Shown one piece after another: positions 23,038-63,382 of a stretch of 64,000 nucleotides of DNA. Numbering within the stretch: the stretch's first letter is position 1; the number at the start of each line of letters is the position of its first letter. Source of the stretch: Escherichia coli (GTDB lineage: Bacteria; Pseudomonadota; Gammaproteobacteria; Enterobacterales; Enterobacteriaceae); NCBI RefSeq assembly GCF_046105845.1, contig NZ_CP151004.1, one strand, 5' to 3'. The notes under the pieces are model-generated. The model ran no database searches. It had not been told where the DNA came from and was given only the letters and a program-made list of their open reading frames with translations. The translations under genes were made by a program, and so were the position numbers.

Positions 23038-24471
23038 TTAACCCAGTTGCCAGAGTGCTCCATGTTGCAGCACAGCCACTCCGTGGGAGGCATAGAGCGA
23101 CAGTTCCCGTTCTTCTGGCTGCGGATAGATTCGGCTACTCATCACCGTTTCCCCGTCGTTAATAAATACTTCCACGGATGATGTATCGATAAATATCCTT
23201 AGGGCGAGCGTGTCACCCTGCGGGAGGGGAATACTACGGTAGCCGTCTAAATTCTCGTGTGGGTAATATCGCCACAAAACAAGTCGCTCAGATTGGTTAT
23301 CAATATACAGCCGCATTCCAGTGCCGAGCTGTAATCCGTAATGTTCGGCATCACTGTTCTTCAGCGCCCACTGCAACTGAATCTCAACTGCTTGCGCGTT
23401 TTCCTGCAAAACATATTTATTGCTGATTGTGCGGGGAGAGATAGATTGATGCTGCTGGCGTAACGACTCAGCTTCGTGTACCGGGCGTTGTAGGAGTTTG
23501 CCATTGCTCTCTGATAGCTCGCGCGCCAGCGTCATGCAGCCTGCCCAGCCTTCACGTTTTGAGGGCATTGGCGATTCCCACATATCCATCCAGCCGATAA
23601 CAATACGCCGACCATCCTTCGCTACAAAGCTTTGTGGTGCATAAAAGTCATGCCCGTTATCAAGTTCAGTAAAATGCCCGGATTGTGCAAAAAGTCGTCC
23701 AGGCGACCAAATTCCGGGTATTACGCCACTTTGAAAGCGATTTCGATAACTGTATCCCTCGGCATTCATTCCCTGCGGGGAAAACATCAGATAATGCTGA
23801 TCGCCAAGGCTGAAAAAGTCCGGACATTCCCACATATAGCTTTCACCCGCATCAGCGTGGGCCAGTACGCGATCGAAAGTCCATTCACGCAATGAACTGC
23901 CGCGATAAAGCAGGATCTGCCCCGTGTTGCCTGGGTCTTTCGCCCCGACTACCATCCACCATGTGTCGGCTTCACGCCACACTTTAGGATCGCGGAAGTG
24001 CATGATGCCTTCTGGTGGAGTGAGGATCACACCCTGTTTCTCGAAATGAATACCATCCCGACTGGTAGCCAGACATTGTACTTCGCGAATTGCATCGTCA
24101 TTACCTGCACCATCGAGCCAGACGTGTCCGGTGTAGATAAGTGAGAGGACACCATTGTCATCGACAGCACTACCTGAAAAACACCCGTCTTTGTCATTCT
24201 CGTCTCCTGGCGCTAGCGCAATAGGCTCATGCTGCCAGTGGATCATATCGTCGCTGGTGGCATGTCCCCAGTGCATTGGCCCCCAGTGTTCGCTCATCGG
24301 GTGATGTTGATAAAACGCGTGATAACGATCGTTAAACCAGATCAGGCCGTTTGGATCGTTCATCCACCCGGCAGGAGGCGCGAGGTGAAAATGGGGATAG
24401 AAAGTGTTACCTCGGCGCTCGTGAAGTTTTGCTAGTGCGTTTTGCGCCGCATGTAATCGAGATTGCGTCAT
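23038..24471 (-). CDS. cscA: sucrose-6-phosphate hydrolase / invertase (GH32)
   Basis: ORF track 23038..24480; start placed at MTQSRLHAAQ...; GH32 motifs (WMNDPNG, FRDP, WECPD). Confidence 0.9.
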   Translation of the reverse strand: MTQSRLHAAQNALAKLHERRGNTFYPHFHLAPPAGWMNDPNGLIWFNDRYHAFYQHHPMSEHWGPMHWGHATSDDMIHWQHEPIALAPGDENDKDGCFSGSAVDDNGVLSLIYTGHVWLDGAGNDDAIREVQCLATSRDGIHFEKQGVILTPPEGIMHFRDPKVWREADTWWMVVGAKDPGNTGQILLYRGSSLREWTFDRVLAHADAGESYMWECPDFFSLGDQHYLMFSPQGMNAEGYSYRNRFQSGVIPGIWSPGRLFAQSGHFTELDNGHDFYAPQSFVAKDGRRIVIGWMDMWESPMPSKREGWAGCMTLARELSESNGKLLQRPVHEAESLRQQHQSISPRTISNKYVLQENAQAVEIQLQWALKNSDAEHYGLQLGTGMRLYIDNQSERLVLWRYYPHENLDGYRSIPLPQGDTLALRIFIDTSSVEVFINDGETVMSSRIYPQPEERELSLYASHGVAVLQHGALWQLG

Positions 24472-24505
24472 TTTTATCATCCTGGTTAAGCAAACTTGGT
24501 GAATT

Positions 24506-24581
24506 GTTAACGTTAACCTTTATAAAAATAAAGTCCCTTGCTTTCATAAATGCGATGAATATCACAAATGTTAACGTTAAC
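24506..24581. promoter_or_regulatory. cscA-cscKB divergent promoter region with two identical 12-bp palindromes (candidate CscR operators)
   Basis: GTTAACGTTAAC occurs at 24506-24517 and 24570-24581; each is a perfect palindrome. Confidence 0.55.
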
Positions 24582-24686
24582 TATGACGTTTTGTGATCGA
24601 ATATGCATGTTTTAGTAAATCCATGACGATTTTGCGAAAAAGAGGTTTATCACTATGCGTAAGTCAGATGAATTTAAGGGAAAAAA

Positions 24687-25610
24687 ATGTCAGCCAAAGT
24701 ATGGGTTTTAGGGGATGCGGTCGTAGATCTCTTGCCAGAATCAGACGGGCGGCTACTGCCTTGTCCTGGCGGTGCGCCAGCTAACGTTGCGGTGGGAATC
24801 GCCAGATTAGGCGGAATAAGTGGGTTTATAGGTCGGGTGGGGGATGATCCTTTTGGTGCGTTAATGCAAAGAACGCTGCTAACTGAGGGTGTCGATATCA
24901 CGTATCTGAAGCAAGATGAATGGCACCGGACATCCACGGTGCTTGTCGATCTGAACGATCAAGGAGAACGTTCATTTACGTTTATGGTCCGCCCCAGTGC
25001 CGATCTTTTTTTAGAGACGACAGACTTGCCCTGCTGGCGACATGGCGAATGGTTACATCTCTGTTCAATTGCGTTGTCTGCCGAGCCTTCGCGTACCAGC
25101 GCATTTACAGCGATGACGGCGATCCGGCATGCCGGAGGTTTTGTCAGCTTCGATCCCAATATTCGTGAAGATCTATGGCAAGACGAGCATTTGCTCCGCT
25201 TGTGTTTGCGGCAGGCGCTACAACTGGCGGATGTCGTCAAGCTCTCGGAAGAAGAATGGCGACTTATCAGTGGAAAAACACAGAACGATCGGGATATATG
25301 CGCCCTGGCAAAAGAGTATGAGATCGCCATGCTGTTGGTGACTAAAGGTGCAGAAGGGGTGGTGGTCTGTTATCGAGGACAAGTTCACCATTTTGCTGGA
25401 ATGTCTGTGAATTGTGTCGATAGCACGGGGGCGGGAGATGCGTTCGTTGCCGGGTTACTCACAGGTCTGTCCTCTACGGGATTATCTACAGATGAAAGAG
25501 AAATGCGACAAATTATCGATCTCGCTCAACGTTGCGGAGCGCTTGCAGTAACAGCGAAAGGGGCAATGACAGCGCTGCCATGTCGACAAGAACTGGAAAG
25601 TGAGAAGTAA
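24687..25610 (+). CDS. cscK: fructokinase (PfkB/ribokinase family)
   Basis: 307-aa ORF with PfkB signatures (GGAPANVAVG, DSTGAGDAF). Confidence 0.9.
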   Translation: MSAKVWVLGDAVVDLLPESDGRLLPCPGGAPANVAVGIARLGGISGFIGRVGDDPFGALMQRTLLTEGVDITYLKQDEWHRTSTVLVDLNDQGERSFTFMVRPSADLFLETTDLPCWRHGEWLHLCSIALSAEPSRTSAFTAMTAIRHAGGFVSFDPNIREDLWQDEHLLRLCLRQALQLADVVKLSEEEWRLISGKTQNDRDICALAKEYEIAMLLVTKGAEGVVVCYRGQVHHFAGMSVNCVDSTGAGDAFVAGLLTGLSSTGLSTDEREMRQIIDLAQRCGALAVTAKGAMTALPCRQELESEK

Positions 25611-25671
25611 ACGGCGAGGCCGCTCTTATCTCTAAATAGGACATGAATTTTTTAACGACAGGCAGGTAATT

Positions 25672-26919
25672 ATGGCACTGAATATTCCATTCAGAAATGC
25701 GTACTATCGTTTTGCATCCAGTTACTCATTTCTCTTTTTTATTTCCTGGTCGCTGTGGTGGTCGTTATACGCTATTTGGCTGAAAGGACATCTAGGATTA
25801 ACAGGGACTGAATTAGGTACACTTTATTCGGTCAACCAGTTTACCAGCATTCTATTTATGATGTTCTACGGCATCGTTCAGGATAAACTCGGTCTGAAGA
25901 AACCGCTCATCTGGTGTATGAGTTTCATTCTGGTCTTGACCGGACCGTTTATGATTTACGTTTATGAACCGTTACTGCAAAGCAATTTTTCTGTAGGTCT
26001 AATTCTGGGGGCGCTCTTTTTTGGCCTGGGGTATCTGGCGGGATGCGGTTTGCTTGACAGCTTCACTGAAAAAATGGCGCGAAATTTTCATTTCGAATAT
26101 GGAACAGCGCGCGCCTGGGGATCTTTTGGCTATGCTATTGGCGCGTTCTTTGCCGGTATATTTTTTAGTATCAGTCCCCATATCAACTTCTGGTTGGTCT
26201 CGCTATTTGGCGCTGTATTTATGATGATCAACATGCGTTTTAAAGATAAGGATCACCAGTGCATAGCGGCGGATGCGGGAGGGGTAAAAAAAGAGGATTT
26301 TATCGCAGTTTTCAAGGATCGAAACTTCTGGGTTTTTGTCATATTTATTGTGGGGACGTGGTCTTTCTATAACATTTTTGATCAACAACTCTTTCCTGTC
26401 TTTTATGCAGGTTTATTCGAATCACACGATGTAGGAACGCGCCTGTATGGTTATCTCAACTCATTCCAGGTGGTACTCGAAGCGCTGTGCATGGCGATTA
26501 TTCCTTTCTTTGTGAATCGGGTAGGGCCAAAAAATGCATTACTTATCGGTGTTGTGATTATGGCGTTGCGTATCCTTTCCTGCGCGCTGTTCGTTAACCC
26601 CTGGATTATTTCATTAGTGAAGCTGTTACATGCCATTGAGGTTCCACTTTGTGTCATATCCGTCTTCAAATACAGCGTGGCAAACTTTGATAAGCGCCTG
26701 TCGTCGACGATCTTTCTGATTGGTTTTCAAATTGCCAGTTCGCTTGGGATTGTGCTGCTTTCAACGCCGACTGGGATACTCTTTGACCACGCAGGCTACC
26801 AGACAGTTTTCTTCGCAATTTCGGGTATTGTCTGCCTGATGTTGCTATTTGGCATTTTCTTCTTGAGTAAAAAACGCGAGCAAATAGTTATGGAAACGCC
26901 TGTACCTTCAGCAATATAG
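25672..26919 (+). CDS. cscB: sucrose:H+ symporter (MFS, LacY family)
   Basis: 415-aa 12-TM ORF, LacY-like. Confidence 0.9.
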   Translation: MALNIPFRNAYYRFASSYSFLFFISWSLWWSLYAIWLKGHLGLTGTELGTLYSVNQFTSILFMMFYGIVQDKLGLKKPLIWCMSFILVLTGPFMIYVYEPLLQSNFSVGLILGALFFGLGYLAGCGLLDSFTEKMARNFHFEYGTARAWGSFGYAIGAFFAGIFFSISPHINFWLVSLFGAVFMMINMRFKDKDHQCIAADAGGVKKEDFIAVFKDRNFWVFVIFIVGTWSFYNIFDQQLFPVFYAGLFESHDVGTRLYGYLNSFQVVLEALCMAIIPFFVNRVGPKNALLIGVVIMALRILSCALFVNPWIISLVKLLHAIEVPLCVISVFKYSVANFDKRLSSTIFLIGFQIASSLGIVLLSTPTGILFDHAGYQTVFFAISGIVCLMLLFGIFFLSKKREQIVMETPVPSAI

Positions 26920-33068: not shown

Positions 33069-33142
33069 TATTGGTCAAGTGCATTTTTGAAGAAAACTTA
33101 ATTTTATGGGCGTGAATTTAGTTTGCCTTTGATTTTTAACGG

Positions 33143-33167
33143 GAAATAAAAAAGGGGCGAAAGCCCC
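33143..33167 (-). terminator. rho-independent terminator immediately after c2
   Basis: GGGGC-GAAA-GCCCC hairpin followed by a U-run on the minus strand. Confidence 0.6.
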
Positions 33168-33818
33168 TTAAGGAAGGTTTGCTAGCTTGGCATCAACGAC
33201 AACGCCAATGATTTTACAGTTCCCATTGATTTCAATCATTGGGTATTGTGGATTGAGTGGTTTCAGGAATTTTCTACCGGCATCAATAACTAACTTTTTG
33301 AATGTCGCCTCGTTTTCTCCTTCAAGTTTGGCGACTACCAGCTTTCCATTACGTGGTTCGACTTCTGGGTCGACGAGAATAATCATCCCCTCAGGAATAC
33401 TCAGTCCTGCCGGGGCAGTCATTGAATCGCCTTTAACGTCGAGCCAAAAAGAGTCTTCAGAACAATCTACCGTTGTGTCGTACCAGTTATCTATTGCACG
33501 CCTATGATATGGCTCTACAGCTTCCATCCAACATCCTGCGCTTACCCAACTAATTAGAGGATACGAACCTCTTGGATCATGCCTGCTGTGATAGGCAATG
33601 TTTGAAAGACTATCCTCTCCTTTCAACAGGTAATCAGGGGAGCACTGCAAAGCCTTGGCTAAGGCCAATAGGTTTTCGCCATTGGGCTCAGTTTCAGATC
33701 GCTCCCATTGGGAAATAGCAACATTAGACACGCCAACCATCTTGCCAAGGGCAGCCTGCCTAATCTTGAGTTCTTTTCTGCGAGCGCGAATACGCTCACC
33801 CATCAGTTGTGTATTCAT
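33168..33818 (-). CDS. c2: prophage repressor (P22 C2 / lambda CI functional equivalent), HTH plus LexA-like peptidase
   Basis: 216-aa ORF MNTQLMGERIRARRKELKIRQAALGKMVGVSNVAISQWERSE... with C-terminal S24-like domain; near-identical to recalled P22 C2. Confidence 0.9.
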   Translation of the reverse strand: MNTQLMGERIRARRKELKIRQAALGKMVGVSNVAISQWERSETEPNGENLLALAKALQCSPDYLLKGEDSLSNIAYHSRHDPRGSYPLISWVSAGCWMEAVEPYHRRAIDNWYDTTVDCSEDSFWLDVKGDSMTAPAGLSIPEGMIILVDPEVEPRNGKLVVAKLEGENEATFKKLVIDAGRKFLKPLNPQYPMIEINGNCKIIGVVVDAKLANLP

Positions 33819-33884
33819 AGTTAAGACATCTTAAATAAACTTGACTTAAGATTCCTTTGGTGGATAATTTAAGTGTTCTTTAAT
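33819..33884. promoter_or_regulatory. OR operators and PRM/PR in the c2-cro intergenic region
   Basis: Two 18-bp sites fit AnTnAAGnnnnCTTnAnT: AGTTAAGACATCTTAAAT (33819-33836) and ATTTAAGTGTTCTTTAAT (33867-33884). Confidence 0.65.
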
Positions 33885-33898
33885 TTCGGAGCGAGTCT

Positions 33899-34084
33899 AT
33901 GTACAAAAAAGATGTTATTGACCACTTCGGAACCCAGCGTGCTGTTGCTAAAGCACTAGGCATTAGCGATGCAGCAGTCTCTCAGTGGAAAGAAGTTATC
34001 CCAGAGAAAGACGCCTATCGATTGGAAATCGTTACAGCTGGCGCCCTGAAGTATCAAGAAAGTGCTTACCGCCAAGCGGCATAA
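33899..34084 (+). CDS. cro: Cro repressor
   Basis: 61-aa HTH ORF (MYKKDVIDHFGTQRAVAKALGISDAAVSQWKE...) divergent from c2. Confidence 0.85.
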   Translation: MYKKDVIDHFGTQRAVAKALGISDAAVSQWKEVIPEKDAYRLEIVTAGALKYQESAYRQAA

Positions 34085-34199
34085 GCAAATTGCTCTTTAA
34101 CAGTTCTGGCCTTTCACCTCTAACAGGGTGAGCAAACATCAGCGGCAAATCCATTGGGTGTGCCGCTATAACTCAATATCAATATAGGAAAATTAACAA

Positions 34200-34496
34200 A
34201 TGGCACAAGCAAGCTACAGCAAGCCAACACAGCGAGAAATTGATCGCGCTGAAACTGATTTACTCATCAACCTGTCAACGCTTACCCAGCGCGGTCTGGC
34301 AAAGATGATTGGCTGTCATGAATCGAAGATAAGCAGAACGGACTGGAGATTTATTGCTTCGGTCTTGTGTGCTTTCGGAATGGCATCAGACATCAGTCCG
34401 ATTAGCAGGGCTTTTAAGTATGCATTGGATGGAATCGCAAAGAAAAAATCCCCGGCTGCCACCGAGGATTCTGAGCAAATTGATATGCAATTCTGA
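34200..34496 (+). CDS. CII-type transcriptional activator (P22 c1)
   Basis: 98-aa ORF; C-terminus KKKSPAATEDSEQIDMQF resembles the lambda CII C-terminus. Confidence 0.75.
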   Translation: MAQASYSKPTQREIDRAETDLLINLSTLTQRGLAKMIGCHESKISRTDWRFIASVLCAFGMASDISPISRAFKYALDGIAKKKSPAATEDSEQIDMQF

Positions 34497-34676
34497 GGTA
34501 ATTACTGGATCAATCCACAGGAGTAATTATGACAAAACGTCGTAAGAAATACCAGGAAAAAGAAGAGATTCGACACCCTGATTCACCTGAGGGATTAGTG
34601 GTAGCCGCAGCAAATAACAGGGCGTTCGCAGAGCGCCTTGTTGGTGTTTACAGACTAGCCAAAGCAGGAGTGAAAC

Positions 34677-57369: not shown

Positions 57370-57699
57370 CTATTTAATTCTCTTTTCAATGGCTGCAATT
57401 ATTGCTTTTCCTGATGTTTCAGGAGATTTTGTAGCCATATAAGACGAAAAAATCATGTCGGTCATTCTTTCATAACTTACTATTTCCCACTTAGCCAATG
57501 CATGGGACAGTTTGTAGTTGTCATCAGTTAGTGCCCTTATGGAATTTTTTAAGTGTTTATTCTCTTCTGTTAATCGCGCAATTTTTGTATCAATTTCATG
57601 TGAGCGATCTAATTCCTTAACCTGTTTCTTGAGGGCAGCTAACCCTGCATATAGTACGCAACAGGATATCCCAAGAGCGAGTACGACTATTTCTAACAC
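57370..57699 (-). CDS. hypothetical membrane-anchored coiled-coil protein (109 aa)
   Basis: N-terminal TM helix (MLEIVVLALGISCCVLYAGLAAL) plus coiled-coil; convergent with the ejection genes; low GC. Confidence 0.55.
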   Translation of the reverse strand: MLEIVVLALGISCCVLYAGLAALKKQVKELDRSHEIDTKIARLTEENKHLKNSIRALTDDNYKLSHALAKWEIVSYERMTDMIFSSYMATKSPETSGKAIIAAIEKRIK

Positions 57700-57817
57700 A
57701 CCAACCTCCTTAGTTTTTCGCAGGATACCATGAAAAAAGTAAACATCTTTTGCCTACTTCACATTTGAATGGTTTGTCATTAGGATGTTTCCGGTTTTTT
57801 CAAATATGGAAATTGAT

Positions 57818-58237
57818 ATGAAGAGGATTATCGGCGTTGTTGCTGGCGCTATATTGTTATCTGGGTGCGCAACTATTGTTGGTGACGAAACACAGCTCGT
57901 GCAAGTGAACAGCAATCCTTCCGGTGCGAGCTTTAAAGTAAAAGACGAATCAGGCGTGATTGTTGCGCAAGGCAAGACCCCGCAAGGAGTAACTCTTGCC
58001 AAGTCAGATGGGAGTTATTTTGGCAAAAAGAGCTACCAGATCACTATGGAAAAGGATGGGTACGAACCAGTTACCCTGCCAATCAAAGCCAATGCTAATG
58101 GTTGGTATATTGGTGGAAACCTTGTGTTTGGTGGGTTAATTGGTTGGCTTGCTGTAGATCCTTTTAATGGTGGGATGTATACCTTGAAGCCAAAAGAGGC
58201 AAACGCATCTCTTATACCATCAACAAAGCAAGACTAA
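57818..58237 (+). CDS. predicted lipoprotein with PEGA-like beta domain and Gly-zipper C-terminus (140 aa)
   Basis: Signal peptide and lipobox MKRIIGVVAGAILLSGC; PSGASFKVKDESGVIVAQGKTPQGVTL...KDGYEPVTLPI resembles a PEGA domain; ORF track offers a longer 57785 start. Confidence 0.6.
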   Translation: MKRIIGVVAGAILLSGCATIVGDETQLVQVNSNPSGASFKVKDESGVIVAQGKTPQGVTLAKSDGSYFGKKSYQITMEKDGYEPVTLPIKANANGWYIGGNLVFGGLIGWLAVDPFNGGMYTLKPKEANASLIPSTKQD

Positions 58238-58245
58238 TAAATAGG

Positions 58246-58268
58246 ACCCACCTTCAGGTGGGTTTTTT
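58246..58268 (+). terminator. terminator after the lipoprotein gene, overlapping the mnt 3' end
   Basis: ACCCACC-TTCA-GGTGGGT hairpin followed by TTTTTT. Confidence 0.65.
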
Positions 58269-58505
58269 GTACAAATCCTTCAGCGTATCAAACACCATCT
58301 TCTTAACAAGCTCTGACTGCTCATCAGCGAGTCGTTCTGCATCGTCGCGATATCCAGTCACAGGCGATGGTTTTGATAGAGCATCTTGGACGATTTGTAA
58401 CAACTCGGAGTTCATTGATCTCCCATTCGCCTCCGCCCTGAATTTTAATTTCTCCCTTACTTCCATAGGCATACGGAAGTTAAAGTGCGGATCATCTCTA
58501 GCCAT
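58254..58505 (-). CDS. mnt: Mnt repressor (ribbon-helix-helix), immI
   Basis: 83-aa ORF MARDDPHFNFRMPMEVREKLKFRAEANGRSMNSELLQIVQDALSKP... near-identical to recalled P22 Mnt. Confidence 0.9.
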   Translation of the reverse strand: MARDDPHFNFRMPMEVREKLKFRAEANGRSMNSELLQIVQDALSKPSPVTGYRDDAERLADEQSELVKKMVFDTLKDLYKKPT

Positions 58506-58527
58506 GCCATCACTCCAAGTTAGTGTA

Positions 58528-58579
58528 TTGACATGATAGAAGCACTCTACTATATTCTCAATAGGTCCACCGTGGACCT
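58528..58579. promoter_or_regulatory. Pant promoter with Oarc and Omnt operators
   Basis: TTGACA (58528-58533), 17-bp spacer, TATATT (58551-58556); Oarc ATGATAGAAGCACTCTACTAT (58533-58553) as recalled for P22; Omnt palindrome AGGTCCACCGTGGACCT (58563-58579). Confidence 0.8.
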
Positions 58580-58595
58580 ATATTGTGAGGTGAAT

Positions 58596-58757
58596 ATGAA
58601 AGGAATGAGCAAGATGCCGCAGTTCAATTTGCGGTGGCCTAAAGAAGTATTGGATTTGGTACGCAAGGTGGCGGAAGAGAATGGTCGGTCTGTTAACTCT
58701 GAGATTTATCAGAGAGTAATGGAAAGCTTTAAGAAGGAAGGGCGCATTGGCGCGTAA
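58596..58757 (+). CDS. arc: Arc repressor (ribbon-helix-helix), immI
   Basis: 53-aa product [53 protein letters not shown] matches recalled P22 Arc. Confidence 0.9.
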
Positions 58758-58825
58758 AGTTGAAGCCCCAACTGCGGGAACAGTCAGGGCTTCGGTATCA
58801 ACAAATCGGATTAGGAAATATTGAC

Positions 58826-59704
58826 ATGAAAAGTATAGCAAAGGCACAAAACGATTTCACCATCTTCAAATTCGGCGACAGTGAAATCCGCGTCATCAAC
58901 AAATGCGGTGAGCCGTGGTTTGTAGCAAAAGATGTTTGTGATGCTTTAACCCTGACTAACTCACGCAAGGCGCTTACTGCACTTGATGACGATGAAAAGG
59001 GAGTAACTTTAAGTTACACCCTTGGTGGTGAGCAGAATCTAAGCATTGTTAGCGAATCAGGTATGTATACATTGGTTCTGCGCTGCCGCGATGCTGTCAA
59101 TAAAGGTTCGGTCCCGCACAAATTCCGCAAGTGGGTAACAGCAGAAGTTCTACCTTCAATTCGCAAACATGGCGAGTATGTGAAAGGCAAGAAAACCACT
59201 GTTGAGGAAAGAACGCCGCTACGCGATGCAGTAAACATGCTGGTAGGAAAGAAAGGACTTCGCTATGACGATGCATACAATATGGTTCATCAGCGTTTTG
59301 GTATTGACAGCATTGATGAACTTTCAATTGAACAAATCCCGCTGGCCGTAGAGTACATCCACAGGGTAGTGCTTGAAGGCGAGTTTATCGGCAAACAAGA
59401 GAAGAAAGCAAACGAGCTTTCTGCAAAAGAAGCAAACAGCCTTGTATGGCTATGGGATTATGCTAACCGTTCACAGGCATTATTCCGCGAACTGTATCCG
59501 GCATTAAAACAAATTCAATCGAACTATTCCGGCAGATGCTACGACTACGGTCATGAATTCTCGTATGTTATCGGAATGGCGAGAGACGTTTTAATCAATC
59601 ACACACGAGATGTTGATATCAATGAGCCAGACGGACCAGCGAATCTTTCCGCATGGATGAGACTTAAGAATAAAGAATTACCTCCTTCAGTACATAACTA
59701 CTGA
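58826..59704 (+). CDS. ant: antirepressor Ant
   Basis: About 292-aa ORF from [41 protein letters not shown], immediately downstream of arc. Confidence 0.8.
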
Positions 59705-59804
59705 CAGATAACCAACGCGACAACCCAGCTTCGGCTGGGTTTTTTTATGCCCAAAATTCATCGTAGCCATGCTTCGGTGATTCCTTGTATCTGGAGCAAA
59801 TTAA

Positions 59805-62144
59805 ATGACAGATTCAATAAATGCCAATGTTGTGGTAAGCATGCCTTCGCAACTCTTCACTATGGCTCGTTCTTTTAAAGCCGTAGCCAATGGCAAAATT
59901 TATATCGGTAAAATTGACACGGACCCGGTAAATCCTGAAAACCAGATTCAGGTTTATGTGGAGAACGAAGACGGTTCTCACGTTCCTGTTTCGCAACCAA
60001 TAATCATTAACGCTGCTGGATATCCGGTATATAACGGACAGATTGCCAAATTCGTTACCGTGCAAGGCCATTCTATGGCTGTTTATGATGCGTATGGTTC
60101 GCAGCAGTTCTATTTTCCGAATGTGTTGAAGTACGACCCTGATCAGTTTTCCTTGTGGGCAAAGGGAAATTTCGAAATATCAGAATACAGTCGAATAATT
60201 GATGGCGATTTTGCGTCTGGATATACTATTACCAATAGAAAACAGGTCCTTAAATACACTGATGGACTTTATTACCAATGGCTTGGTTCCCTTCCGAAAA
60301 CTGTAGCGCCAACAGAAAATCCAAATCTTAATAGTCAATGGTTATGCGTCATGGATGGTTCTAATTTCAATGATGCGATCATGTGCAGTCGCTACATTCA
60401 TAGCGGAGTTGACTGCGCATCGGTAATAAATAAATTACAAATATTATCAGAATATAAAAGGGTTCCTCTAGATTTTAGAGGTATAGATGTGATCTCGTTT
60501 AGTGGTAGTGTGCAAATTGGCGACTGGTTTCATTGGATTGGTGCAGGGAAGTCAAGTACTACTATCAGACCAATCTCACTAACAAAGCAAGACGTTGAGA
60601 ATAATGGCTTTGGCTATTACTCTTGGTTCATCCGTAAGAACCCTGACAAGGATCTATATTTTGCGATGCTGCAGGATATTTGTTTTGATGGACAATACCA
60701 AGACGGTTACGAAATAAATAACATTGCGCCGCAGAAGATTATTCGCGCATTCTGCTGGCATTTCAATAACGGTGCCATTGGTCGCAATATTACTGCTTTA
60801 AGATGTCATTTCAAAAACTGCCCACATGAAGCATGGGAAGGATACACAACTAATGGTGGAATGATTGATGGTATTAATTATTTGTATTGTTCATCAGAGG
60901 GAACAGACCCAATGCTTACCGCTGTTGGATTCAATGCATTTAAGTGTATGAATGGCTCTATTGATTCACCTGGCGAATACGGTACATATACCATTAAAAA
61001 CATCTTCAGTTTCGGCAACACTGCTTTCGGCCATCGTACATTGAATGACTTTAAGAGAGGTTGCGAAAATTGGGTTATCGATGCATGCCAAACATTCGAC
61101 ATGAACGATTGCCATCACTCTACGGATGGTTCACGCCGTGGTGTATTCCTTGCTGGCAATATCGGAATTCAAACAGGAAAATCAAAAGCAACTAAAAATT
61201 TTCTTGAAATTCAAGGAGAGAATATTGATGTTCTTGGTGGAAAGTATGTTGCTGCAGCAACCAGTGTGGCTGGCTTGGCTGGTATATTCGTGACTAATTA
61301 CTCGTATCCTTCTGAGTCTACAGACTTCCAATCACAGCACATTCGAATTAAAAATGTCTATGTCGAAAGGGTAAACAATAATGCGGTACGCATTGTCAAT
61401 GGGTATGACATCAACGTTGAAGATATCACGGCTGTTAGCTGTAACGGTGTTGGTGTATCATTCGAATTTGTGCCTGGACTAATTAGCGGAATTGACAATC
61501 AAGAGATAAAACCAAGATTTAACTCTGTAGGTAAGATCATAACTAGTTCGTGTTCAGGTGAAGTGCTTGTAGACAATAACCAAGACGTATTTATCACTGC
61601 CAATAGCCAGAATACAGGAGGTGGTTTTCGTGTTGGAAGAAGTGATGCTGTCCATAGTACTAACCCTCTACCGATGCGTTCCATAGCTGGTCATATTCTA
61701 GCTAATCAGGATAGATTTTTTCAGTCTGTTATATCTATTGCGCCAGAGAAAACAGATGCAACTACAAAGCCTGTAGGTACGCCTTATGCATTCACTCTTA
61801 ACGATAAGAATACCGCATCAGTACAGAGTTTATTAGTGGCAACACTTCGAGTAGCTCAACGAAGCGCTGTCTATGTAAGACTATGGACGTTATCAGAAAC
61901 ATCAATATCATCGGCGGTCATTTTTCGCGAATTGGATTCTACAGGTAATTCGTTATCTAATACTGCAATAAAATTATTATCTGATAATTCGTGGCTTGAG
62001 CGTCAGGCAATATATCATGTTAAAAGATCAGAATGTGTAGCTGTAGAGGTTTTTCTTGCTCCTGCTTGTGATGAACGCATGGATATTTCCTTGACAGGAA
62101 CAACTAGTTTTGCTGATGTTAGAGTAAGTAATTATCCAATCTGA
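59805..62144 (+). CDS. tailspike protein (P22 gp9-type head-binding N-terminus plus divergent receptor-binding domain)
   Basis: 779-aa ORF; the first ~110 aa ([47 protein letters not shown]...[10 protein letters not shown]) match the recalled P22 tailspike N-terminus, the remainder does not. Confidence 0.85.
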
Positions 62145-62203: not shown

Positions 62204-63382
62204 TTACTGAAGTTTTCTTCTTGTGTATGTTAGTACATTAAATTTTTTAAACTTACTACACGGTGTCTCAATATATCTAAAACATAGCAATGATATAAGC
62301 GTGATAAACCCAGAGAGGATTATAATAATAGCTGAAAATACAAGGCTGTTAATTTGATTAACATAGCTAACCGGAAGTATTATTTTAAATGTTATAAAAA
62401 GTATAATGCCATGTAGAAGATACATGCTATATGTAGCTTCTCCAAAAACTTGACAGGTTTTTATCTTAAGAACTCCAAAAATATCGCATCCATTTGATAT
62501 CAGAATAAATGCAATACCACAGAGTGATATTGTTATTGGATTGTAAGGATTTGGAATTAAAAAACAAGTTACACATAAGATAACGATGACGAATAAGCTT
62601 GATAATATTTTATTGAAAGGCAAGCCGTTAGGCAGTTTGTGATTTATTTTTGCTGCCAGATAACCAAAAACAAATGATAAAATATGTATTTTTAATGATG
62701 GATAGAAAATAAAAGCAAATACACTCGCAATACTAAGAATTGTGTAAGTATTAAATTTGTCTCTTCTCATTATAAAAGCCATAAAAGGAAGAGATAAATA
62801 AAAAAACCATTCATAAACAAGTGACCACGGAACTCCGGCCATGATAAGCGACGTCTTGTGAAGACCGTTAACATCAGGCATTCCAAGGAAAGAAAAAGGA
62901 ACCCATCTCGCCATAGATATTATGAGATTGGCAATTCCTGTGTTAATTTTCCAATCAGAAACATAGAACACAATTATGAATAGTAGAGATAACGAAACCA
63001 GATACATAGGTGTTAGTCTCATTATTCTTGACCAAAATAAATCTTCCCAATTTACTGATTTATTCGAAATCAATTTCCCGAAGAACAAGAAGCCTGTAAT
63101 CATAAAAAAGAAAATAACAGCTATTTTTCCAATATTAGTATAAAATAACGAATCAGGATCAGACCAAACCCCAGTATGTATGTATTGCCACCAGAAACTG
63201 GAATGATGAAGGAAAACCATTAAAGCAAGAAATCCTCTAAGCCCATCAATTGATTCACTCCTTCCTTTGATAGGTGATAAGTGTGTTTCTGTGACAAATA
63301 TTCTTGCAACCGAAAGTGAAGTAATCACCGATAAAGAAGCAATTAAAAAGCCATTAAATCCGTCAAACATAGAAATCTCCAT
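62204..63382 (-). CDS. oac: integral-membrane acyltransferase (acyltransferase-3 family), probable O-antigen acetylase
   Basis: 392-aa polytopic ORF; very AT-rich; position between tailspike and integrase as recalled for Sf6 oac. Confidence 0.75.
   Translation of the reverse strand: MEISMFDGFNGFLIASLSVITSLSVARIFVTETHLSPIKGRSESIDGLRGFLALMVFLHHSSFWWQYIHTGVWSDPDSLFYTNIGKIAVIFFFMITGFLFFGKLISNKSVNWEDLFWSRIMRLTPMYLVSLSLLFIIVFYVSDWKINTGIANLIISMARWVPFSFLGMPDVNGLHKTSLIMAGVPWSLVYEWFFYLSLPFMAFIMRRDKFNTYTILSIASVFAFIFYPSLKIHILSFVFGYLAAKINHKLPNGLPFNKILSSLFVIVILCVTCFLIPNPYNPITISLCGIAFILISNGCDIFGVLKIKTCQVFGEATYSMYLLHGIILFITFKIILPVSYVNQINSLVFSAIIIILSGFITLISLLCFRYIETPCSKFKKFNVLTYTRRKLQ

Follow-up and report, generated by a model that had tools for sequence, protein, structure and literature searches.

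The question raised by this locus is whether an E. coli prophage holds, in addition to the immC repressor region, a complete P22-type immI region, and whether its Ant protein would act as the Ant of P22 does. The window is the whole 64-kb stretch of E. coli DNA that was analysed, and all positions refer to it. Positions 58254-59741 very probably constitute a complete P22-type immI region, also known as the 'ant moron', in an HK620/Sf6-like prophage of the P22 family. Every DNA, RNA, and protein element of the region is present, intact, in position, and near-identical to P22, and nothing in the sequence contradicts the immI reading. The immI system is already known and has reached the textbooks; the copy in the window is closely related to that of P22 and is widespread in E. 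coli. The sole departure from P22 is a recombinant locus, with a swapped N-terminal domain of Ant and a different 5' hairpin of the sar RNA.

Organization of the immI region

Analysis of the open reading frames and their orientation showed the gene layout of a P22-type immI region, with mnt divergent from arc and ant. The region is located between the DNA-injection genes and the tailspike gene, as in P22. Its neighbours encode homologues of DNA-transfer proteins on the upstream side and, on the downstream side, a tailspike that has the P22 head-binding domain. A megablast search against phage genomes matched 113 records, with epsilon34 and P22 at the top. The genes and the terminators that flank them are as follows.

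58246-58263, no strand assigned: G+C-rich hairpin, probably a bidirectional terminator (perfect 8+2+8 inverted repeat; T-runs on both strands)
58254-58505, minus strand: mnt, 83 aa, ribbon-helix-helix repressor with the Mnt C-terminal domain (Pfam Arc, 3.9e-30; Repressor_Mnt, 7.2e-19)
58596-58757, plus strand: arc, 53 aa (Pfam Arc, 9.8e-31)
58826-59704, plus strand: ant, 292 aa, Bro-N and P22_AR_C domains (Pfam Bro-N, 5.7e-20; P22_AR_C, 3.6e-29)
59722-59741, plus strand: intrinsic terminator between ant and the tailspike gene (8-pair stem, then TTTTTAT)

The hairpin at 58246-58263 separates an upstream plus-strand gene (57785-58237) from mnt. The terminator scan found it terminator-like on the minus strand, and TTTTTTG follows it on the plus strand. 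The equivalent site of epsilon34 is annotated as a terminator, and the counterpart of the terminator after ant is annotated in both P22 and epsilon34.

Annotated positions for Pant, Pmnt, O_arc, O_mnt, the sar RNA, its terminator, and Psar were taken from the curated P22 record and transferred to the window by a constant offset. This placed Pant at 58528-58556, Pmnt at 58533-58561, O_arc at 58533-58553, and O_mnt at 58557-58579; the sar RNA fell at 58756-58825, the sar terminator at 58756-58793, and Psar at 58832-58860. A sequence-only reading of this DNA had claimed a complete P22-type immI control region, and all of the elements that it listed were found where it had put them or a few bases away. 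Its inventory holds for these elements and lacks two promoters, Pmnt (58561..58533, minus strand) and Psar (58860..58832, minus strand).

The repressors Mnt and Arc and their control elements

Mnt is identical to P22 Mnt at 81 of 83 residues, with an unaltered N-terminal DNA-reading strand. Arc is identical to P22 Arc at 52 of 53 residues, and the one change, R16K, also occurs in epsilon34. All the Mnt and Arc substitutions relative to P22 lie outside the operator-reading N-terminal β-strands. An alignment including epsilon34 showed that the 91-bp mnt-arc intergenic region has only two substitutions relative to P22, at the O_mnt centre and at one outer base; no position of Pant, Pmnt, or O_arc departs from the P22 sequence. 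The control elements in this spacer are the following.

58528-58556, plus strand: Pant, the arc-ant promoter, TTGACA-17-TATATT (promoter scan, 11/12; P22 annotation at the same position with the same sequence)
58533-58561, minus strand: Pmnt, divergent from and overlapping Pant, TTGAGA-17-TATCAT (promoter scan, 10/12; exactly on the annotated P22 mnt promoter)
58533-58553, no strand assigned: O_arc, 21 bp, ATGATAGAAGCACTCTACTAT, between the two Pant hexamers, overlapping Pmnt (21/21 against the annotated P22 O_arc)
58561-58581, no strand assigned: O_mnt, a perfect 10+1+10 palindrome, ATAGGTCCAC C GTGGACCTAT, centred on C58571 (inverted-repeat search)

The near-consensus promoter that had been recognized from the letters alone is thus present as P22 Pant, with 11 of 12 consensus positions, and the arc operator claimed for the same spacer agrees with the annotated P22 O_arc at all 21 positions. 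With 4 promoter-like sites versus 3.4 expected, the region shows no excess over chance, so the significance of the promoters rests on their base-for-base identity to the mapped promoters of P22.

O_arc occurs once in the 64-kb window, with a chance expectation of 0.00, and is kept in 43 of 46 related control regions. The O_mnt palindrome overlies the predicted transcription start of Pant. Its 17-bp core (58563-58579) also has one occurrence in the window, versus 0.08 expected. All 16 bases of the core half-sites are those of P22, with C instead of G at the centre; across 46 related loci the centre base is C in 10 and G in the remainder. The O_mnt of P22 has a G centre and a broken outermost pair. 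The palindrome in the window is longer than that of P22 because one outer base is changed. The Mnt operator had been described as a perfect 8+1+8 palindrome; the palindrome was confirmed, but its real extent is 10+1+10.

The sar antisense RNA and the arc-ant hairpin

A whole-window Rfam scan at gathering thresholds gave one match only, to sar (RF00262), at 58824..58758 on the minus strand. The match scored 71.6 bits (gathering threshold 43; E=6.4e-13), covered model positions 1-68 of 68, and was not truncated. A hairpin between arc and ant had been noted where P22 makes sar and its terminator, and the full-length match falls on exactly that hairpin, on the minus strand. The sar elements, together with the ribosome-binding site of ant, are listed below.

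58756-58825, minus strand: sar antisense RNA, about 68-70 nt (Rfam RF00262; ends transferred from the P22 annotation)
58762-58793, minus strand: sar 3' hairpin and predicted sar terminator, GAAGCCC...GGGCTTC (inverted repeat, fold, Rfam, P22 sar-terminator annotation)
58797-58825, minus strand: sar 5' hairpin of the Kapi1 type (alignment and fold; Rfam places its 6-pair stem on the model stem)
58813-58816, plus strand: Shine-Dalgarno sequence AGGA of ant, 9 nt before the ATG and within the sar-complementary stretch (direct reading of the sequence)
58832-58860, minus strand: Psar, GTGAAA-17-TATACT with an upstream TG (extended -10), in ant codons 3-12 (promoter scan, 9/12; P22 Psar position)

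The sar RNA is complementary to the entire arc-ant spacer, including the ribosome-binding site of ant, and stops 1 nt short of the ATG at 58826. The 70-nt minus-strand RNA folds into two hairpins with a predicted energy of -29.7 kcal/mol, whereas shuffled sequences averaged -11.4 (z = -7.3). At Psar, the -10 matches that of P22 exactly; the -35 (GTGAAA) has 4 of 6 consensus bases versus 3 of 6 in P22 (GTGTTA). With the predicted start of sar near 58825, the whole ant leader and the AGGA would be covered by the antisense RNA. The Rfam match, the fold, and the promoter at the P22 position agree on a P22-type sar, with its own promoter inside ant and its terminator in the spacer. Psar falls just beyond the interval 58506-58830 to which the sequence-only reading had been assigned.

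Compared with RF00262, the sar of the window matches the full model, with two hairpins antisense to the ant leader. However, the primary sequence of its 5' hairpin differs, and the loop is 1 nt shorter than the model consensus. The pairing of the 5' stem is kept despite the changed sequence, being UCAAUA/UGUUGA in the window versus GUUGGU/ACUGAC in P22.

The arms of the GAAGCCC...GGGCTTC hairpin (58762-58774 and 58781-58793) are 13 nt each and 85% complementary in DNA, and the minus-strand RNA forms a 14-pair stem. A generic terminator scan of the region did not flag this hairpin, whose tail has three U only. Because that scan missed the low-T tail, the evidence for the hairpin as the predicted sar terminator on the minus strand comes from the fold, the P22 annotation, and the Rfam model.

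Plus-strand termination of Pant transcripts by the same hairpin was ruled out as a candidate: GGTATCAAC follows, with no T-run, and the scan was negative on the plus strand. A broader alternative is that the main role of the hairpin lies on the plus strand, where it would serve as an attenuator or processing site for transcripts from Pant or of the late operon, and not as the sar terminator. The structure does exist in the sense transcript too, and the ant moron has been proposed to modulate late-promoter read-through into the tailspike gene (PMC2629481). However, the downstream sequence and the scan just described also count against this broader role, the minus-strand RNA fits the Rfam sar model end to end, and a minus-strand promoter lies at the correct distance. 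A mainly plus-strand role is therefore very improbable.

The ant gene and the mosaic origin of the locus

A TTG-started ORF of 314 aa (58760-59704) was rejected as the real ant, since the ATG at 58826 aligns with the P22 start, is preceded by AGGA 9 nt upstream, and is the start used by PGAP in a related genome, where the same 879-nt ant gene is called.

The Ant of the window shares 99% identity with Kapi1 Ant and 58% with P22 Ant, and has 292 aa versus 300 aa in P22. By segment, residues 1-119 are 25% and residues 120-292 are 84% identical to P22 Ant. The full-length protein matches phrog_245, 'anti-repressor Ant' (9.3e-112). In the Pfam search P22 Ant gave P22_AR_N and P22_AR_C, whereas Bro-N replaces P22_AR_N in the window. 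The domain architecture is thus not that of P22, and the homology to P22 Ant is confined to the C-terminal 60%.

The locus is a recombinant: beginning with mnt and up to the sar terminator it resembles epsilon34/P22, and from that terminator through ant it resembles Kapi1. Window positions 58240-58841 have 96% nucleotide identity to epsilon34 and 95% to P22, and these alignments decay right after GGGCTTCGGT. Positions 58756-59810 have 97% nucleotide identity to Escherichia phage Kapi1. The two blocks of similarity overlap in a 41-bp sar terminator stretch (58756-58796), and this shared stretch is probably the crossover site. Such a mosaic structure would account both for Bro-N in place of P22_AR_N in Ant and for the different sar 5' hairpin.

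Comparison with the individual phages shows the same division. The gene order and orientation, Pant, Pmnt, O_arc, the O_mnt half-sites, the Psar -10, and the location of the region are all the same as in P22, and the sar terminators of the two are one loop base apart. In contrast, P22 differs in sequence from the window at the sar 5' hairpin, at the ribosome-binding site of ant, and at the -35 of Psar. The upstream neighbours in P22, sieA/orf59a, are absent upstream of the immI region in the window, and the host of the window is E. coli.

Salmonella phage epsilon34 (genes 16-18 and sar) is the closest match to the left part. The match takes in the bidirectional terminator as well as the gene upstream that encodes a lipoprotein, a homologue of gp15, and the Mnt and Arc of epsilon34 each differ from those of the window by one residue. 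Unlike the window, epsilon34 has a P22-type sar 5' hairpin and a P22_AR_N-type Ant.

Escherichia phage vB_EcoP_Kapi1 shares both the terminator and the 5' hairpin of sar, the ribosome-binding site of ant, and the complete ant (97% nucleotide identity), with its ant annotated from the upstream TTG as 314 aa. However, unrelated Arc-family proteins replace the P22-type Mnt and Arc in Kapi1, and its control region is much shorter, without O_arc and O_mnt. Published work on Kapi1 presents it as a P22-like podophage integrated at argW in E. coli (PMC8787464). The mnt analogue of Kapi1, a gene unrelated to the mnt of the window, was without detectable expression in lysogens of that phage (PMC12922286). 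Given Kapi1, regulation in the E. coli relatives may differ in detail from that of P22.

Variation and distribution among relatives

An exact copy of the 34-nt sar terminator was found in at least 120 IMG/VR viral contigs; the scan demanded this exact sequence and so shows the diversity around it, not the divergence rate of the terminator itself. Among the matches listed, at least four classes of the sar 5' half and ant start, and more than 10 kinds of upstream gene, surround this sequence. The kinds of upstream gene were obtained by clustering the ORF that ends at the hairpin, in place of an ungapped classification that had left many loci as 'other'. P22-type Arc is the commonest upstream gene, with 51 sequences among the matches listed, four annotated reference loci, and the window. 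Within these 51 sequences, the P22-type ant 5' end occurs in 34 and the window type in 16.

When each sar class was folded separately, the two-hairpin shape was obtained in all classes among the matches listed. A MAFFT alignment of the sar variants placed the P22-type 5' stem one column out of register versus the other classes, and the covariation is qualitative only. The 'ant moron' of P22-like phages has been described as a site of unusually high genetic flux, with ten types among sixteen genomes (PMC2629481). The modular shuffling and the position of the region in the window fit this published description.

These patterns allow a tentative proposal, which we consider possible and rather doubtful. 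A cassette of about 400 bp, comprising the 5' hairpin of sar, the ribosome-binding site of ant, the -35 of Psar, and the N-domain of Ant, might be swapped as a unit among P22-like phages by recombination between the sar terminator, which is highly conserved, and the likewise conserved P22_AR_C-coding half of ant. Such a swap might retarget Ant to other prophage repressors, and might give a private pair of sar and ant leader that is immune in trans to the sar of other cassettes. The joint exchange of the Ant N-terminal domain and the sar 5' hairpin is in itself only a mildly new point.

Among complete E. coli genomes, 43 of 5426 carry the full arrangement seen in the window, with identities of 96-99.7%. 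In those genomes PGAP gives generic gene names, and sar is not annotated.

The immC region and the prophage

The prophage was also claimed to carry a second immunity system, and a P22/phage 21-type immC region with c2, cro, and a cII-family gene was indeed found alongside immI.

33168-33818, minus strand: c2-type prophage repressor, the presumed target of Ant (Pfam HTH_3 and Peptidase_S24; 94% identical to P22 C2)
33819-33898, no strand assigned: O_R/P_RM/P_R control region (92/96 nt identical to P22 O_R1-3)
33899-34084, plus strand: cro (Pfam P22_Cro, 5.7e-28)
34200-34496, plus strand: c1/cII-type activator (Pfam Phage_CII, 2.9e-33)

This region has the LexA-like c2 divergent from cro, the P22-type O_R, and the c1/cII activator that mark a P22/phage 21-type immC. 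Its DNA (33168-34496) is 98-99% identical to that of phage 21 and mEp235. The late genes of the prophage are about 96% identical to those of HK620 and Sf6. In a related genome, the prophage family is located at argW/intS, adjoining the csc sucrose genes; csc sucrose genes are also present in the window (23038-26919).

The immI region could be an evolutionary remnant, unregulated or unused and passively carried, as in HK620 and Scho1 with their degraded ant or arc. Degraded ant morons are documented in related phages (PMC2629481), and a closely related E. coli genome holds the region at 99.7% identity in a prophage that has IS insertions and has lost virion genes. However, the three immI ORFs of the window are full length, the operators and promoters are identical or nearly so to those of P22, and the sar match is far above threshold. 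The terminase, portal, coat, injection, and tailspike ORFs of the surrounding prophage are also full length. We regard a remnant as highly unlikely, and an intact immI region remains the preferred reading.

The possible target of Ant

The Ant of the window may bind the c2-type repressor, but its N-terminal 119 residues belong to another Pfam family than those of P22 Ant. Bro-N is a fold usually associated with DNA binding. A sequence search of solved structures with Ant found none, so no interaction surface can be inferred for the protein. P22 Ant targets the C2 repressor of P22 itself as well as the repressors of the phages L, lambda, and 21 (PMC3121763).

It is therefore conceivable that the control elements are intact but that Ant is not an antirepressor of the resident c2. 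Bro-N could direct it elsewhere, for instance to another class of repressor, to DNA, or to a host factor, and the region would then be a regulated accessory module and not a second immunity system for this immC. The replacement of P22_AR_N by Bro-N, with 25% identity to P22 Ant over residues 1-119, is in line with such a view. So is the finding that, among the matches listed, the ant 5' ends fall into at least four classes that combine freely with many different upstream genes, and neither a solved structure nor a mapped interaction surface was found. However, over the C-terminal 173 residues the protein shares 84% identity with P22 Ant, and the full-length architecture is that of a large family annotated as Ant (phrog_245). 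The Ant of P22 is also promiscuous, with the phage 21 repressor among its targets (PMC3121763), and the immC of this prophage is of the 21/P22 type. A different target thus seems unlikely, though it is the least improbable of the alternatives considered here, and the antirepressor reading is preferred.

The suggestion that Ant could induce co-resident prophages is plausible, and is borrowed from P22 Ant, whose N-terminal domain differs. It is reasonable because P22 Ant hits the repressors of 21 and P22, and the resident immC belongs to that type. The broad repressor range of P22 Ant, however, cannot simply be assumed for the Ant of the window, because the N-terminal domain is Bro-N.

Proposed mechanism

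The roles of mnt, arc, sar, and ant in P22 have been summarized (PMC11016777), and the mechanism given below also draws on PMC2629481 and on the P22 annotation. We infer operator binding, transcription, and the target of Ant in the window only by carrying them over from P22. In a lysogen, Mnt made from Pmnt would sit on the palindromic O_mnt over the Pant start, arc and ant would be silent, and the c2 repressor of immC would stay active; Ant should thus be held off by Mnt. Upon infection or loss of Mnt, Pant would fire, and Arc would build up and bind O_arc in Pant/Pmnt, turning both promoters off. Psar in the start of ant would direct a sar RNA of about 69 nt, ended at the GAAGCCC...GGGCTTC hairpin. 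The sar RNA would pair with the ant leader and ribosome-binding site and block the translation of Ant. Any Ant produced despite these controls would bind and inactivate the c2-type repressor.

Implications

The main value of this analysis is in annotation: PGAP gives 'Arc family DNA-binding protein' and 'P22AR C-terminal domain-containing protein', with no sar and no operators. The exchange of the Ant N-domain and the sar 5' hairpin is the only part beyond the textbook system. It offers a natural experiment on which part of Ant sets repressor specificity. With an intact Mnt/Arc/sar/Ant circuit, an E. coli P22-like prophage would depend on two repressors for lysogeny, and c2-type repressors could be inactivated in trans by a phage that superinfects or escapes repression.

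Mosaic structure of the immI locus

By sequence comparison, the immI locus of the window is a recombinant. Left of the sar terminator the sequence is epsilon34/P22-like, and right of it Kapi1-like. Two segments were delimited by alignment and similarity blocks:

58756-58796, mosaic joint
58797-59190, swapped cassette

A single block was exchanged, comprising the sar 5' hairpin, the ribosome-binding site of ant, the -35 element of Psar and the N-terminal domain of Ant (Bro-N in place of P22_AR_N).

The ant gene of Escherichia phage Kapi1 (MT813197.1, 1505-2449) begins, as annotated, at a TTG that precedes the likely ATG by 66 nt, giving a product of 314 rather than 292 aa. The corresponding open reading frame in the window is:

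58760-59704, TTG-started ORF matching the Kapi1 ant annotation

An N-terminal extension from this TTG would cross the whole sar region. The start codon is more probably the ATG that aligns with the start of P22 ant.

Prophage composition and accessory genes

The immC region (33100-34520) shares 98-99% nucleotide identity with coliphages 21 and mEp235, and its repressor has 94% protein identity to P22 C2. Thus, the prophage combines an HK620/Sf6-like virion module with immunity of the 21/P22 type and with an immI that is a hybrid of epsilon34 and Kapi1.

The tailspike gene and its neighbour are convergent:

59805-62144, + strand, tailspike, 779 aa, residues 4-114 being the P22 head-binding domain
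62204-63382, - strand, Acyl_transf_3/O-acetyltransferase gene, just downstream of the tailspike gene

The receptor-binding part that comes after this domain is unlike that of P22 and gives only a weak match to Tail_spike_N; the tailspike is a typical mosaic. The acyltransferase gene probably serves in lysogenic conversion by modifying the O antigen, as Sf6 oac does.

The position held by sieA/orf59a in P22 is filled in the window by two genes of unknown function:

57370-57699, - strand, protein of 109 aa, hydrophobic at the N-terminus, with a coiled-coil-like region (phrog_8100)
57785-58237, + strand, predicted lipoprotein, 150 aa, with a Cys after a signal-like N-terminus (phrog_6823; epsilon34 gp15 homologue)

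The lipoprotein also gave a PEGA-domain match below the Pfam cut-off (E = 0.0045). Both genes are candidates for prophage-expressed exclusion or conversion genes.

Persistence of the immI and sar-ant modules

Among the matches listed, 46 P22-type control regions were compared. In 43 of them neither the Arc operator nor Pant varies, and the centre base of O_mnt (window 58571) is polymorphic (C in 10/46, G in 36/46). Viral contigs with an exact match to the 34-nt sar terminator were also compared, the upstream region being noted for L009, L006, L015, L021, L049 and other loci. In many of these contigs, among the matches listed, the genes directly upstream of the sar terminator and the start of ant are not arc; several encode Cys-rich C-termini (e.g. 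...KCSFCGKPQHECAMLIRAKAEIFICSSCVSLC...). Therefore, the sar-ant module persists without the Arc/Mnt control set, in agreement with CUS-3 and HS-1, where ant is present without arc (PMC2629481).

On its left side, the prophage is immediately adjoined by sucrose-utilisation genes:

23038-26919, cscA, cscK and cscB (GH32 hydrolase, PfkB kinase and LacY-type permease)

The same prophage junction falls between csc and torI/intS/argW in a related genome. A related argW prophage was found in E. coli VTB97022v (NZ_CP178670.1, 19329-42598). It has lost all head genes and most injection genes and carries IS903B, and its tailspike gene contains an IS2 insertion. Its mnt-arc-ant region is kept at 99.7% identity to the window. 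Therefore, immI can persist in defective prophages.
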